Below are positions 3,731-64,000 of a stretch of DNA of 64,000 bases, piece by piece; the first letter of the stretch is position 1, and each line of letters starts with the position of its first letter. Origin of the DNA: an uncultured Armatimonadetes bacterium (GTDB taxonomy: Bacteria; Armatimonadota; UBA5829; DTJY01); assembly GCA_963717145.1 (NCBI GenBank), contig OY970325.1, positions 4,064,001 through 4,128,000 of the forward strand, given 5' to 3'. A model generated the notes under the pieces. The model worked only from the letters and a program-made list of their open reading frames with translations. It was not told where the DNA came from and searched no databases. The translations under genes and the position numbers were made by a program.

Positions 3731-3746
3731 TGCAAGATTCGTGCCA
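3731..3746 (-). promoter_or_regulatory. sigma54 (-24/-12) promoter
   Basis: TGGCACG-AATC-TTGCA on the minus strand, full consensus. Confidence 0.8.
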
Positions 3747-59197: not shown

Positions 59198-60178
59198 ATG
59201 ACACGCATACGCCCGCGACGGCTGCGGGTCTCCGAGGCCATGAGGCGCATGGTCTGCGAGACCGAGCTGTCCGTCAACGATTTGATCTACCCGATGTTCG
59301 TCATGCCCGGCGAAGGATCCCGTGTGGAGATCCCATCGATGCCGGGGTGCTTTCGCATGTCGGTCGACGAGCTGTGCAAGGAAGCCGCCGAGGTCCAGGC
59401 GCTCGGCATCCCGGGGATATTGCTATTCGGGCTGCCGGAGTCGAAAGACGAGATCGGCTCGGGCGCATATGACCCCGAGGGGATCGTCCAGCAGGCGGTC
59501 CGTGCGATCAAGTCGTCCGTGAAAGACCTGCTCGTCATCACCGACGTGTGCATGTGCGAATACACGTCCCACGGCCACTGCGGGATCATCTCCGGCGAGA
59601 AGGTCCTGAACGACCGCACGGTCATGCTGCTCGCGAAGACCGCCCTCTCCCATGCGCAGGCGGGCGCGGATATCGTCGCCCCGTCCGACATGATGGACCT
59701 CCGCATCGGGGCGATCCGGGATGCGCTCGATGAGCATGGCTTCGAGGACACGGCGATCATGGCATACTCGGCGAAGTATTCGTCTGCGTTCTACGGCCCG
59801 TTCCGCGAGGCGGCGGAGTGCGCGCCTCAGTTCGGCGACCGGAAGGCATACCAGATGGACCCGGCGAATTCGCGCGAGGCCCTCAAGGAGGTCGCGCTCG
59901 ACATCGAGGAGGGCGCTGACATCGTGATGGTGAAGCCGGCGCTCGCGTACATGGACATCATCCGCCAGGTGAAGGACTCGACCGACATCCCCGTGGCGGC
60001 GTTCAACGTCTCTGGCGAGTACTCGATGGTGAAGGCGGCGGCGCAGAACGGCTGGATCGACGAACAGAAGGTCGTCTCGGAGATACTGACATCCCTCAAG
60101 CGCGCGGGCGCGGACATCATCCTGACCTACCACGCGATGGATGTGGCGGAGGGGATGGGGCGAATGGTTGATGGTTGA
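59198..60178 (+). CDS. hemB: Porphobilinogen synthase
   Basis: [38 protein letters not shown]. Confidence 0.97.
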
Positions 60179-60233
60179 TGGGGAATGGCTGATGGGGGAA
60201 CGGTTCATGGTTGATGGCTGACGGGGACCGGAA

Positions 60234-60340
60234 CCCGCTAGTCCTGAGTGCGCCTCTGGGCGTGTATCGAAGGACGGCCTACGGAGTGCCACAAGGCCGT
60301 CCTTCGATACACGCCCAGAGGCGCACTCAGGACTAGCGGG
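60234..60340. repeat. Perfect 47-bp-arm palindrome (same family as 1420-1533)
   Basis: 60234-60280 is the reverse complement of 60294-60340. Confidence 0.9.
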
Positions 60341-60376
60341 TCCTGTTGTGCAGGGCTCAACCCACGAAGTTCCCAC

Positions 60377-60745
60377 AAAGAAAGAAGGCCGGCGATCACT
60401 CGATCGCCGGCCTTTCGGCTAGGTACGAAGTTGGCTCAATGAAAGCATCTCGCGGTTGTCTCGCCGCTGACGAATGCTAACCCCAGACAGTCCACCGCCA
60501 GCGCCCGCAAGGCCTGGGGAACTGCGCACCGATCGGTCTGGTAAGCGCATGATCCGCCGAATCTCTCTGTGGCGGATCAGCGTGGGCAAGGGAGTCGCCC
60601 GTCGCCGATCTTCCGGCATATGTTCCAATCGCTGGTCGCGGTGAAATCAATGAGAAGGGATACAGAAGCGGTACGCTGGTCAAAGAGGATCTAAGGCACA
60701 GCCACGCATCTCTTTCTCCTACTTCGACGGTCTGGCGCCGTCTTC
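60377..60745 (-). ncRNA. Candidate ~365-nt structured RNA (with a 9-codon mini-ORF)
   Basis: TTGACG-17-TATATT (60780-60752), chain of hairpins with minus-strand G-U pairs, intrinsic terminator 60377-60415. Confidence 0.55.
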
Positions 60746-60828
60746 TATAACAATATAATGCGGATACCGAATTCCGTCAACCGGCAAAAATACCTGTTTT
60801 GCGAAAAAGATGCGGGACGCGTCGGAAG

Positions 60829-60930
60829 ATGTCCCCCTTACGAAGGGGGACCGGCCTCTGGGCCGAGGGGGTATGTCTGCATGCAAACCTCCCCCGGCCT
60901 GCTGGCCGGCCCCTCCTTCGTAAGGAGGGG
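60829..60930. repeat. CCCC/GGGG-type REP pair
   Basis: tcccccttacgaaggggg ... cccctccttcgtaaggagggg. Confidence 0.8.
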
Positions 60931-60933
60931 CGC

Positions 60934-61737
60934 TTACAGGATCGGGGTCTGCGAAGGGATTCTGTCGCGGAAGAGAGTGATCGCCTCAAAGCCCGCCGAC
61001 CGGATCACGTCCAGTCCCCGCTCCAGACCGAAGCCCAGGTGCTCCCCGAGATGCGCGTCTGAGCCGATGGTGAGCAACTCCCCGCCGAACTCGCGGTACA
61101 GCTTGAGGGTCTCCAGCGCGGGGAACGGCTCCCCGCACGGCTGACGATATCCCGAGGTGTTCACCTCCAGCGCGATTCCCCGCTCGATCATCGTCCGCAG
61201 GATTGCCTCGATCTGCTCGCGGTACGGCTCGATGCTGAACGGGCCGAGGTACTTCACCCCGAATCGCTTGACGAGGTCGAAGTGCGCCAGGACGTCGAAG
61301 TTGGCGCACTCGGCCGCCTGCAGGACCTCATCGAAGTACCTGCGATAGAGGGCGACCCAATCGGTCGTACCGGTCTGAAAGTCGACCGAGACGACCGCAT
61401 CGCCGACCCAGTGGATGCCGGCGGTGAGGAAATCGAACTTCTCGTCGCCGAGGACCCGCTCGATCTCGCGGGGATAGAGGTGCGGCTCACCGAGTTCCGC
61501 GCCCTTGAGAATGCGGAGACGGTCGCCGAAATGCTCCCGGCAGTCATCGACATCGCGGGCGAAGTCGGCCGCATCGAAGAGGCCATAGCACTGGTCGTCC
61601 GGATTGCTGTCGAGGTGGTCGGTGAACGCGATCTCAGTCAGGCCGCGCTCGATGGCGAGGCGGCACATCTCCTCGACGGAGACGTGTCCGTCGCCGGAAT
61701 GGGTCGAATGAACGTGGTAGTCGATCAGGTGTGTCAC
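60934..61737 (-). CDS. PHP-domain histidinol-phosphatase (HisJ family)
   Basis: DYHVHSTHSGDG, FTDH, AHFD, LEVNTSG, GSDAH. Confidence 0.88.
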   Translation of the reverse strand: MTHLIDYHVHSTHSGDGHVSVEEMCRLAIERGLTEIAFTDHLDSNPDDQCYGLFDAADFARDVDDCREHFGDRLRILKGAELGEPHLYPREIERVLGDEKFDFLTAGIHWVGDAVVSVDFQTGTTDWVALYRRYFDEVLQAAECANFDVLAHFDLVKRFGVKYLGPFSIEPYREQIEAILRTMIERGIALEVNTSGYRQPCGEPFPALETLKLYREFGGELLTIGSDAHLGEHLGFGLERGLDVIRSAGFEAITLFRDRIPSQTPIL

Positions 61738-61778
61738 CCCCTAATGTTATCCGGCCCGGGCATACTCTCCTTGGGCAC

Positions 61779-61848
61779 AAGAAAAATGGCCCGCAGGGTG
61801 TTCGCCTGCGAGCCAAGTAAGTAAGGAGAAAAAGATGTCTTTTTCAAC
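61779..61848 (-). ncRNA. Candidate sigma54-dependent sRNA, copy A
   Basis: Promoter 61859-61874; conserved core; GC hairpin plus U-tract. Confidence 0.65.
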
Positions 61849-61858
61849 TGGGGATATC

Positions 61859-61874
61859 TGCAAGAATCGTGCCA
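61859..61874 (-). promoter_or_regulatory. sigma54 promoter
   Basis: TGGCACG-ATTC-TTGCA. Confidence 0.8.
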
Positions 61875-61975
61875 ATCCCGGCAATAATGCCTGCCATGTA
61901 GCATATTTCACGAACTTATCACATTCAGCACATGCGGCGTTCACGAACAAACGCCTATCAGGCGGTTTGGAGGGC

Positions 61976-62044
61976 AAAAAAAGAGAAGCCTGCGAGATTT
62001 TCCCGCAGGCTCGTAAGGAAGGAGAAATAGATGTTGTTTCCAGG
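61976..62044 (-). ncRNA. Candidate sigma54-dependent sRNA, copy B
   Basis: Promoter 62055-62070; same core; hairpin plus U7. Confidence 0.65.
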
Positions 62045-62054
62045 TAGTATTACC

Positions 62055-62070
62055 TGCAAGAATCGTGCCA
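62055..62070 (-). promoter_or_regulatory. sigma54 promoter
   Basis: TGGCACG-ATTC-TTGCA. Confidence 0.8.
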
Positions 62071-62163
62071 ATTCGTGCAACAAGTCGGGGAAAGGTCAAA
62101 AAGAGTTGGAGGCAGGGGGCAATCATTGAGGCACACGTGATCGATGATGCGTTGGCAGTGCAC

Positions 62164-63036
62164 TCAAGAATCCGAGGTTCCGGCAACTGCAGAGCTCGTC
62201 ATAGTACCGGTTGATATGACGTATGGCTGGTATACATGCGTCGTCCCATCTAGAGCCAGAAAGCATCCTCTGCTGCAGACAAGAAGCGCTCGAGTGTGGA
62301 AGTATATACATCCACTTTCTGCGAAATTCTCGGCGGTCAGATATCGATTGTGCATCACTCTGTTTCGGAGAGTCCGAAGTTCGTTCAGTTTGTAATAAGC
62401 GCCCTTTCGAATAAAGACATTCCGGAACACATCTGCCCAGCAAGTCGCCTCATCTATGATCTTGGGCAAGTCTGAGAAGTCAGCGTAGAATATGTCGTGC
62501 ATCCTCTCAAAATCATGTTCAAGATCGTTCTCCTCATCAGACTTCCGATTGCCACACCTGCGCTGGATGGCAAGTAGATCTGGCTCAGCGCTGACCGTCC
62601 ACCAGTCCATGCCGTAGCATCTTGCCATAGATGCGGCGATGCGACGCCGAAGTTTGTTCTCCAGATCATGCAGGTCTGCATATGTCTTGATGGTCCGTTG
62701 GCGGCCTATCCCATCGTAGCTCAACATCCACCATGTGAAATAGGCAGACGCGGCGTATTCAATGCGAGTCTTGGCCTCTTGCATCTCCGTCTCTCCAGCT
62801 TCCTCGCCACCCTCCAGCATGATCTGGAACACGTTTGGCGATCCTCCGCTCCATCTAATCCTAACGAACACACCTTGTGCCAACCCGGATACCTCGCTCT
62901 GAGCTTGGAGGCCTGGCTGTAACTCGAAGTCTGTCAGTTCCATTAGCTCCACCATATCGGTACTGGCCTGAGCATCTGGTGAGTTATTGAGAGCGAGGTA
63001 CTCCACTTGGTTACTTGCGAGAGCAGGTGTGGTCAT
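62164..63036 (-). CDS. Swt1-like HEPN domain protein
   Basis: LENKLR, YADFSDLPKII, LRNRVMH (RxxxxH). Confidence 0.72.
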   Translation of the reverse strand: MTTPALASNQVEYLALNNSPDAQASTDMVELMELTDFELQPGLQAQSEVSGLAQGVFVRIRWSGGSPNVFQIMLEGGEEAGETEMQEAKTRIEYAASAYFTWWMLSYDGIGRQRTIKTYADLHDLENKLRRRIAASMARCYGMDWWTVSAEPDLLAIQRRCGNRKSDEENDLEHDFERMHDIFYADFSDLPKIIDEATCWADVFRNVFIRKGAYYKLNELRTLRNRVMHNRYLTAENFAESGCIYFHTRALLVCSRGCFLALDGTTHVYQPYVISTGTMTSSAVAGTSDS

Positions 63037-64000
63037 CTATCCGTCCTCCAGCACGACATCCTCAACGAGCGCCTGTATCTGACAACAAGTGTCCTGCGCT
63101 TGCTGCTCCAGTTCCCGCACGTGGTTCCGCAGATCCGCTATGCGCTGCACTAATCCCGATTGAGTTCCTAGAGGTGGAATGGGGACGCGTATCGACCGCA
63201 GACTGCTGTAGTCCAGTGCTGGCCTCGTAGAGCCCGTTGCAATCCGTTCCATCTGGGTACGGCAGAGGGCGCTGTTGAGTGCGGCTTCCAAGTATCCTGG
63301 CAGTGCCTGGTCAGGCCTGACTCTGAGTCGAACAATGTGCTGGTTGATATTTGCTTCCCGGAGTTCGGGAGGTACCACGGCCGCGGTGCCTATCCGGCCC
63401 GTAATCGTAAGAAGGACGTCGCCAGGGGTTAGCATCGATCGCGCCAAAGTGCCCGTATGAGTTCGCCTATCAATATATAACACATCAGCTAGATCGATCA
63501 TGCCTTCCTGTATGTTCTGAATGCGTAGGAGAGGCACACCTGCCTCAGCGTTCACATACGCCTCTCCCTTTGCTGCGGGAGTTGCACCCCCTGATATGCT
63601 CTCTACAATCTCGCCAAGCGTACGCACCGGGTACTTGCTTTGGCCCAGTCTAACGTCTATGGAGATGCTGAAAGATGGCTTATGGAAAAATGGATCCATC
63701 CGCAGCGTAAGTCTGCCTTCGTCTGCCATATAGCAAATAGGTTCAGCTTCATTAGATGCGGGTAGCCCTTGCGCGGAAGCAGAGAATAGAGTGGCCACCA
63801 CAGGAAGGGAATCCTCGTCCACTCTTCCGGTCGCGTCGTAGCCCACATGGGAAGGCAAGGCCATGAATGTCATCCCCATGCTATCATCATGCGGCTGTCT
63901 ACGTTGTAGTACCACCAAGCTGGCCTTTACACCTATGCCTGCTGGGGCAAAAGTGTGGGAAGGTAGTGAGATGACTGCCAGGACATGGCACCTGTCTTGT
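63037..64000 (-). CDS. C-terminus of an N6-methyltransferase fused to a specificity (HsdS/TRD) domain; 5' part outside the window
   Basis: Frame open to the window edge: LAVISLPSHTFAPAGIGVKASLVVL (HsdM-like), then SGGATP, PLLRIQNI, GDVLLTITGRIG, INQH, IPPLGTQ. Confidence 0.8.
   Translation of the reverse strand, partial: QDRCHVLAVISLPSHTFAPAGIGVKASLVVLQRRQPHDDSMGMTFMALPSHVGYDATGRVDEDSLPVVATLFSASAQGLPASNEAEPICYMADEGRLTLRMDPFFHKPSFSISIDVRLGQSKYPVRTLGEIVESISGGATPAAKGEAYVNAEAGVPLLRIQNIQEGMIDLADVLYIDRRTHTGTLARSMLTPGDVLLTITGRIGTAAVVPPELREANINQHIVRLRVRPDQALPGYLEAALNSALCRTQMERIATGSTRPALDYSSLRSIRVPIPPLGTQSGLVQRIADLRNHVRELEQQAQDTCCQIQALVEDVVLEDG

Follow-up and report, generated by a model that had tools for sequence, protein, structure and literature searches.

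Tandem, putatively sigma-54-dependent small RNA genes of an armatimonad belong to a class-wide family with predicted targets at PEP-CTERM gene starts

Two tandem units on the minus strand of a 64,000-nucleotide (nt) stretch of DNA from an uncultured Armatimonadetes bacterium (contig OY970325.1, positions 4,064,001 to 4,128,000; hereafter the window) were analyzed. The data showed that these units are members of a real, previously undescribed, multi-copy family of small RNAs (sRNAs), which is confined to one class of Armatimonadota. Each unit consists of a sigma-54 promoter box, a 22-nt core and its own terminator, and the two units are spaced 196 bp apart. In the reading that we prefer, to which we give a probability of roughly 0.6, the units would be independent, trans-acting, sigma-54-dependent sRNAs of about 70 nt, which repress a subset of the genes for PEP-CTERM proteins and form one arm of a surface-protein switch.

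An earlier note, made from the letters of the window, had described two minus-strand units about 196 bp apart with perfect sigma-54 boxes, a core with 20 of 22 positions identical, a GC stem and a U-tract, and all of these were present (Table 1). The core can be written ACATCT(A/T)TTTCTCCTT(C/A)CTTAC and reads ACATCTATTTCTCCTTCCTTAC in unit A and ACATCTTTTTCTCCTTACTTAC in unit B. The T-run after the stem is CTCTTTTTTT in unit A and TTTTTCTTGT in unit B. The stem sequences differ between the two units and contain two G-U pairs in unit A and one in unit B; if the same stems were read on the plus strand, these pairs would turn into A-C mismatches, in agreement with the note, which had assigned them to the minus strand only. 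Between units A and B, conservation was limited to the promoter and the core, also as had been claimed. The starts of the predicted RNAs, 62044 and 61848, were placed by the usual 12-nt spacing past the -12 GC. Both RNAs folded into an open 5' half and a terminator hairpin, with z-scores of -4.3 for unit A and -5.9 for unit B. A sequence model of promoter plus seed (model R1), built from 65 non-redundant units, gave unit A as the top match in the source genome (E = 1.6e-14) and unit B with an E-value of 1.3e-12. The 15-nt core with up to two mismatches was found three times in the window, compared with 0.26 expected, and none of 100 shuffles reached three. A chance origin of the pair is excluded.

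The distribution of the family was determined in the source genome (G000), in the families of its class (f1 to f5) and beyond. The pattern of a sigma-54 box, a gap of 15-35 nt and the core was found in 24 of 41 related genomes, and the reversed control gave no matches. A looser pattern was used for 401 Armatimonadota genomes, and the positives within the class were 7/10 in f1, 6/6 in f2, 6/6 in f3, 19/28 in f4 and 1/2 in f5, together with G000. Outside the class, the same search gave only about five single matches, each with one mismatch, and three in the reversed control; four of these matches (L052-L055) were examined and had no terminator, and the fifth row came without a locus. These out-of-class matches look like chance level. 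With model R1, the family was detected in 41 of the 53 genomes of the class, with 1-6 matches per positive genome. A scan with the exact pattern of 185,579 species, each represented by a single genome, found 21 stretches, all of them in metagenome-assembled genomes that are titled Armatimonadota/Armatimonadetes or carry no taxon name. A scan of window positions 60000-64000 against Rfam 15, with E-values up to 10, showed no family at threshold; the noise matches over the units were ncr982 (E 3), mmgR (E 0.26) and trpB (E 4.4), far under their gathering scores. The computational tests suggested in the earlier note all favored its interpretation. Its proposal that the family is undescribed stands as far as Rfam 15 reaches, and the homologue and covariation search gave homologues across the class with conserved promoter and seed and covarying terminators.

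Five copies of the family are present in G000, namely the window pair, a second tandem pair and one longer form. The second pair (copies C and D) is located at C1:3764492 and C1:3764905, and its seed is one U shorter (four instead of five). The longer fifth copy (E) is located at C1:4341232 and has the seed CAUCUCUUUCUCC. Tandem units were common in the relatives as well. The length of the RNA varied by family, from about 60-70 nt in the family of the window to about 73-84 nt in f2 and about 100-120 nt in f3 and f4, where the long forms carry an additional conserved AAAGUGUUGUGG tract and an extra hairpin. Within the seed, TTTCTCCTTC was invariant or nearly so in the 65 units, and the promoter was likewise.

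Some related sequences were observed beside these copies. A different U/C-rich tract, GAGTTTTCTTCTTC(T)TT(A)CCTTTCGTGGCAA, comes after the sigma-54 box at two further loci of G000, C1:1523043 (+) and C1:3591340 (-), for which the R1 E-values were 3.3e-5 and 0.045, respectively. The seeds of the f5 genome G032 (CUUCUCCUUUUCUUCUUCC) are similar to that tract, and the two loci may represent a second, related sRNA subfamily. Matches to the seed part of R1 only (model positions 19-58), with no promoter, were found in G001 (C35:40985-41014), G005 (C11:214661-214696) and G010 (C23:35319-35354), which could be copies without a promoter, decayed copies or mimics of a target.

The structure of the units was then compared across the family. 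A hairpin and a T-run were found downstream on the promoter strand in all 65 non-redundant units, a count that uses a looser T-run rule; a stricter finder, applied to an earlier set of 66 units, missed 16, of which four were not family members. The consensus fold of 19 short forms showed a terminator stem of nine pairs, six of them with compensatory changes, and an unpaired seed, and the seed was also unpaired in folds of single sequences. Taken with the comparison of reading frames and neighboring genes given below, the units are non-coding and most likely free-standing RNA genes of the minus strand.

The complement of the seed, GGAAGGAGAAAAAGAUG, consists of a Shine-Dalgarno site, an A-rich spacer and an AUG, and predicted targets were sought among gene starts. 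The PEP-CTERM genes of G000 were collected with a crude open reading frame (ORF) caller and a C-terminal regular expression, which gave 60 ORFs; the TIGR02595 model gave 52 matches. The 4474 ORFs with a strong ribosome-binding site (RBS) were ranked by the energy of their duplexes with the seeds of units A and B. Eight of the top 50 were PEP-CTERM genes, against a background of 46 in 4474 (hypergeometric P = 2.6e-8), and reversed seeds gave none in the top 50. The best PEP-CTERM start regions of G000 are those at C1:148459, 163311, 98801 and 1934929. In five genomes from five families, 30 sites with at most one mismatch to AAGGAGAAAAAGATG were examined; 11 of these were the sRNA genes themselves, and 12 began ORFs of at least 60 amino acids (aa), nine of which encode PEP-CTERM proteins (four in G015, three in G006 and two in G035). 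From ten genomes of f1 and f2, 47 further non-self sites with at most two mismatches were taken, of which 30 began ORFs of at least 60 aa, 11 of them PEP-CTERM, including one that was called by eye since the regular expression had missed it. Most of the best matches to the seed were PEP-CTERM genes, both in G000 itself and in relatives that belong to three families. The earlier note had proposed start regions of the AGGAGAAAnAGAUG type as targets; the comparison bears this out and narrows the prediction, mostly to the starts of PEP-CTERM genes.

Some copies of the sRNA had matches of their own in G000. At least 12 contiguous Watson-Crick bases with copy E were found in only five of 4472 ORFs, of which four were PEP-CTERM and one was a truncated PEP-like ORF (P = 4.9e-8). 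The start region of a PEP-CTERM gene at G000 148459, which has four A in its spacer, matches copies C and D, whose seeds have four U, over 15 nt. The only perfect 15-nt complement (AAGGAGAAAAAGATG) of the unit B seed lies in the start region of the PEP-CTERM gene at G000 C1:3714901. This gene (C1:3714901-3715560, +) is disrupted, with the signal peptide in frame 0 and the body and tail in frame +1, and the frame break is either that of a pseudogene or an assembly error.

The PEP-CTERM genes of G000 fell into two sets. Among its 35 sigma-54 sites, five belong to the sRNAs and 13 precede 12 PEP-CTERM genes, such as the one at 2704160. The mean pairing energy with the seed was -13.4 kcal/mol for these 12 genes, and the remaining 36 strong-RBS PEP-CTERM genes averaged -17.8 kcal/mol (Mann-Whitney P = 0.0023); none of the 19 best-pairing PEP-CTERM genes had a sigma-54 box. 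In G015, the 12 exact boxes lie before three sRNA genes, five PEP-CTERM genes and four others, and none of the five sigma-54 PEP-CTERM genes was among its seed-matching sites. In the other genomes, none of nine seed-matching PEP-CTERM genes had a sigma-54-like box within 500 nt. All 41 sRNA-positive genomes had at least six PEP-CTERM matches, and the five genomes without PEP-CTERM genes all lacked the sRNA, a co-occurrence profile that is confounded with that of rpoN.

The sigma-54 polymerase needs an ATPase activator to open its promoters. In G000, there are two rpoN genes and three true sigma-54 activators (EBP1, EBP2 and EBP3). Sites of the form TGGCA[CT]-N5-TTGC[AT] numbered 35 in G000, compared with six in the reversed control, and, apart from four sites of a distinct subtype, most of them carry the TTCTTGCA form, which is also that of the sRNA promoters and of the PEP-CTERM genes driven by sigma-54. 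All 41 sRNA-positive genomes have rpoN, and the sRNA was found in none of the seven genomes without rpoN over the cut-off, which come from at least five genera and, being kin, are not independent. EBP1 (400 aa; G000 C1:3047975-3049174) matches the Pfam families Response_reg, Sigma54_activat and AAA_lid and has no HTH_8 match; EBP2 and EBP3 both have HTH_8. Orthologues of EBP1 (at least 59% identity, nearly full length) were found in 40 of the 41 sRNA-positive genomes, the exception being a genome that is 88% complete, and in 4 of the 12 sRNA-negative genomes. In each of five genomes (G006, G015, G013, G011 and G017), a single rpoN gene was found together with just one strong match to Sigma54_activat, and this match is the EBP1 orthologue. 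Since sigma-54 requires an ATPase activator, the EBP1 orthologue must, by this reasoning, drive the sRNA promoters in these five genomes. The open frames of the orthologues in G015, G013 and G011 are only 403-413 aa long and the match ends near residue 395, so there is no room for a DNA-binding domain. A receiver-AAA+ protein of the EBP1 type is therefore the likely activator of the sRNA promoters.

The other two activators of G000 were considered for the same role and rejected. For EBP2, the class has no close orthologue, and the sRNA-carrying f2 genomes gave neither EBP3-type proteins nor the second rpoN. Four G000 sites have a distinct -12 subtype, AATTGCT (C1:244080, 249531, 262979 and 269485, all +), and form a cluster beside the second rpoN (C1:245951) and the EBP3 gene (C1:242740-244080), whose product bears a helix-turn-helix; this suggests a separate regulon of the second sigma-54 paralogue. 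The genome G008, which belongs to the family of G000 and is a single contig with 100% completeness, has 30 PEP-CTERM matches, no EBP1 orthologue and no sRNA, and it carries only a weaker rpoN type and an EBP3-type activator.

These data are consistent with the following model. Sequence and comparison show the make-up of the units, the family, its non-coding character, the co-occurrence and the complementarity statistics; that the units are transcribed, which activator serves them, that they pair with mRNAs in the cell and that the outcome is repression are inferred from these. A signal would pass through a kinase to the receiver-AAA+ activator, which would open the sigma-54 promoters; the activator of G000, which has no DNA-binding domain, would act from solution. 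Promoter conservation, the phylogenetic profile and elimination of the other activators suggest that each unit is transcribed by the sigma-54 polymerase. Transcription would end at the unit's own intrinsic terminator, for which sequence and covariation provide support. The single-stranded 5' seed, (A)CAUCUUUUUCUCCUUCC, would pair with starts of the GGAAGGAGAAAAAGAUG type, cover the Shine-Dalgarno site and the AUG and block ribosome loading. Hfq, which is encoded in G000 at C1:1354901-1355092, would probably take part. From the complementarity statistics, the main targets would be the subset of secreted, exosortase-sorted PEP-CTERM proteins whose genes lack sigma-54 promoters. The same signal would then turn one set of surface proteins on directly and a second set off through the sRNAs, and paralogues with slightly different seeds would share out the targets. 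We hold a broader form of the model tentatively and at somewhat less than even odds, namely that one enhancer-independent activator runs a two-armed coat switch throughout the class, with a direct PEP-CTERM set and a second, disjoint set silenced by 1-6 sRNAs.

Several observations weigh against the preferred reading, and some of them favor a different one, in which the RNAs are real sigma-54 sRNAs with a general anti-Shine-Dalgarno action or with other targets, and the enrichment of PEP-CTERM genes is a by-product of their ideal RBS. The complement of the seed (AAGGAGAAAAAGAUG) amounts to a consensus start region, a near-ideal generic RBS plus AUG, and PEP-CTERM genes might rank high through their strong, A-rich starts. 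Good sites also occurred at genes other than PEP-CTERM, including those for ribosomal protein L32, PstB, an SGNH-type hydrolase and other secreted proteins, and further non-PEP sites lie at internal methionines of ClpB and acyl-CoA dehydrogenase. The longest contiguous match of unit A in G000 was 11 nt. The 3' flank of the seed (CCUUCC in f1 versus CCUUCU in f2), compared by eye with the target flanks in small numbers, gave a mixed result. No PEP-CTERM site with at most one mismatch was found in G026 (f3) or G032 (f5). The P-values assume more independence than there is, since the PEP-CTERM genes are paralogous and the genomes related. The sRNA is absent from five genomes that have both rpoN and PEP-CTERM genes, four of them with an EBP1 orthologue. 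By eye, no shared activator site stood out in the 150 nt upstream of the 29 TTGCA-type promoters, beyond an A/T tract in some, which fits, weakly, an activator without a DNA-binding domain.

However, PEP-CTERM genes make up only about 1% of the strong-RBS ORFs, as given by the crude ORF caller, which argues against an artefact of generic RBS, and they account for 16% of the top 50 and for 9 of the 12 near-perfect gene starts elsewhere. The PEP-CTERM genes with sigma-54 promoters pair poorly with the seed, and the reversed seed had no PEP-CTERM gene in its top 50. Moreover, the seed variants of the paralogues find matching PEP-CTERM variants, and the sRNAs are confined to genomes with PEP-CTERM genes. 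On balance, we consider a general action or other targets unlikely. The RNAs might instead be sponges for a protein, such as Hfq, another U/C-preferring RNA-binding protein or the mRNA channel of the ribosome, in the manner of CrcZ or CsrB. Their U/C-rich invariant tract and multiple sigma-54 copies resemble the CrcZ design of Pseudomonas, and Hfq is present in G000. However, each RNA has one short motif, and repeated motifs are absent from the family alignments. The tract is the exact complement of a Shine-Dalgarno site, spacer and AUG, with CAU opposite the start codon in 47 of 65 units, a complementarity that is not required of a protein site, and the seed variants follow the target variants; a sponge is thus quite improbable.

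The remaining explanations concern the position of the units and the opposite strand. The units could be cis-acting leaders, each a sigma-54 promoter with an attenuator, of the PHP-family gene at 60934-61737, as the unit B terminator ends about 40 nt before this PHP-domain ORF on the same strand. Among 47 loci, however, no flanking ORF family, upstream or downstream, was common to more than four, which argues against a leader of the PHP-domain gene; within 1.5 kb, no gene for an activator was apparent, and a PEP-CTERM ORF was found within one locus. The units are often tandem, each with a full terminator, and no alternative anti-terminator fold was apparent. This makes a leader very improbable. 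The functional products could also be small proteins of the plus strand, read from ATG 61835 (70 aa) and ATG 62031 (32 aa), an outcome that the earlier note had named as fatal to its proposal. The plus-strand AAGGAGAAAAAGATG is an ideal start region, and the promoter box is in the same frame in both window units. In the family, however, the ATG is absent from 18 of 65 units; in the remaining 47, the length of the ORF ranges from 3 to 81 aa, and 13 ORFs have at most 10 aa. Relative to these mini-ORFs, the promoter box occurs in each of the three possible frames (21, 15 and 11 units), and their peptides have nothing in common beyond the sequence imposed by the promoter DNA. Plus-strand products were accordingly rejected and are scarcely credible.

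The closest known design is that of the Vibrio Qrr sRNAs, which are described as five copies dependent on LuxO and sigma-54 (PMC3730234; bioRxiv 10.1101/2021.07.01.450815). The likeness is one of design and not of homology. Like Qrr1-5, the armatimonad RNAs would be redundant, short and of the Hfq type, each with its own sigma-54 promoter and terminator and a single-stranded seed for mRNA starts, and the copy number is also similar, with five in G000 and 1-6 R1 matches per positive genome. The Qrr covariance model (RF00378) gave no match to positions 60000-64000 in the Rfam scan with E up to 10, so the armatimonad family is not a member of Qrr. It occurs in another phylum, and its short form is shorter, with one hairpin, whereas RF00378 has four stems. 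No linked activator gene was seen, and the predicted targets are paralogous secreted proteins rather than a master transcription factor; the Qrr targets are luxR/hapR and aphA. LuxO of Vibrio binds DNA, while the likely armatimonad activator has no DNA-binding domain.

The PEP-CTERM side resembles the predicted sigma-54 regulon of PrsK, PrsR and PrsT, which Haft et al. (2006; PMC1569441) placed in Proteobacteria only, with no RNA component in their account of that regulon. In both cases, single PEP-CTERM genes lie behind sigma-54 promoters (13 of 35 sites, before 12 genes, in G000; 5 of 12 in G015). However, the best match to the PrsR model in G000 scored 407.2 bits, below the cut-off of 502.6 (TIGR02915/TIGR02916 regulon). 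The conserved armatimonad activator also differs in lacking a DNA-binding domain, and an sRNA arm would be added here. By eye, no counterpart of 'motif 1', the upstream activator site of the PrsK/PrsR regulon, stood out before the sigma-54 promoters of G000. A further comparison can be made with the envelope sRNAs. RybB, MicA and OmrA/B are short sRNAs with a 5' seed that depend on sigma-E or OmpR and repress many surface-protein mRNAs. The armatimonad family shares with them a short RNA, a conserved 5' seed, a terminator and many predicted exported-protein targets at gene starts, but its sequence is unrelated, its seed covers both the Shine-Dalgarno site and the AUG, its predicted targets are PEP-CTERM genes and its promoters are of the sigma-54 type. 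The activators of the CtcB/CtcC type in Chlamydia appear comparable to EBP1, as receiver-AAA+ proteins without a helix-turn-helix; they differ in that the EBP1 type is the sole activator in several armatimonad genomes, where its regulon would comprise sRNAs and PEP-CTERM genes.

A search of the full-text literature, which did not cover supplementary files, found no Armatimonadota sRNA and no sRNA control of PEP-CTERM genes. The family, which has no Rfam model, is thus, as far as this search reaches, the first sRNA lead in Armatimonadota. Bacteria of soil, sediment and biofilms are rich in PEP-CTERM/exosortase proteins, and to our knowledge little is known of their regulation beyond the predicted proteobacterial PrsK/PrsR system. 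If the broader form of the model is true, the PEP-CTERM/exosortase system would gain its first post-transcriptional regulator, and the phylum its first sRNA family with an assigned function. If the preferred reading holds, it would provide a defined sRNA family, seed-target pairs and a single candidate activator for PEP-CTERM regulation, and it would explain why there are two promoter classes among PEP-CTERM genes. A layout of the Qrr type would then have arisen independently in a distant phylum. The predicted targets are specific and testable, and would be new if confirmed. The promoter-plus-seed model can be used to annotate these genes in metagenome-assembled genomes.

Table 1. Features of the two minus-strand sRNA units, with positions in the window
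Feature	Positions	Strand	Basis or remark
Unit A sigma-54 promoter (-24 GG / -12 GC), TGGCACGATTCTTGCA	62055..62070	-	perfect box
Unit A predicted sRNA, ~69 nt	61976..62044	-	start placed by promoter spacing; fold; model R1
Unit A seed/core, ACAUCUAUUUCUCCUUCCUUAC	62013..62034	-	complementary to Shine-Dalgarno site, spacer and AUG
Unit A intrinsic terminator, 12-pair GC-rich stem (62012-61986), then CUCUUUUUUU	61976..62012	-	fold
Unit B sigma-54 promoter, TGGCACGATTCTTGCA	61859..61874	-	identical to unit A box
Unit B predicted sRNA, ~70 nt	61779..61848	-	predicted start; fold; model R1
Unit B seed/core, ACAUCUUUUUCUCCUUACUUAC	61817..61838	-	sequence
Unit B intrinsic terminator, 11-pair stem (61815-61787), then U-run	61779..61815	-	fold

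The window pair is located between the PHP-domain gene and a methylase/HEPN cassette. A third core-like string in the window, CATCTCTTTCTCCTA at 60707-60721 (+), was considered as a family member and rejected, as it has no proper sigma-54 box, U-run or terminator and gave no match to R1; a small hairpin comes after the string, which may be a decayed copy or a chance occurrence. Near-perfect long palindromes at 60230-60344 and 60832-60929 lie in the intergenic region from a porphobilinogen-synthase-like ORF to the PHP-domain ORF. They matched plant and animal microRNA models as hairpins alone (best 56.7 bits, compared with a gathering score of 70) and are probably REP-like intergenic repeats unrelated to the sRNA units. 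Another sigma-54 box without mismatch, TGGCACGAATCTTGCA, lies at 3731-3746 (-) of the window (G000 C1:4067746) and shares the downstream GGTAAT...ACC context of unit A. In the roughly 60 nt downstream, a short hairpin (CCTCGGACATC/GGATGTCCGGGG) follows, with no seed, and this box may belong to another small sigma-54 transcript.

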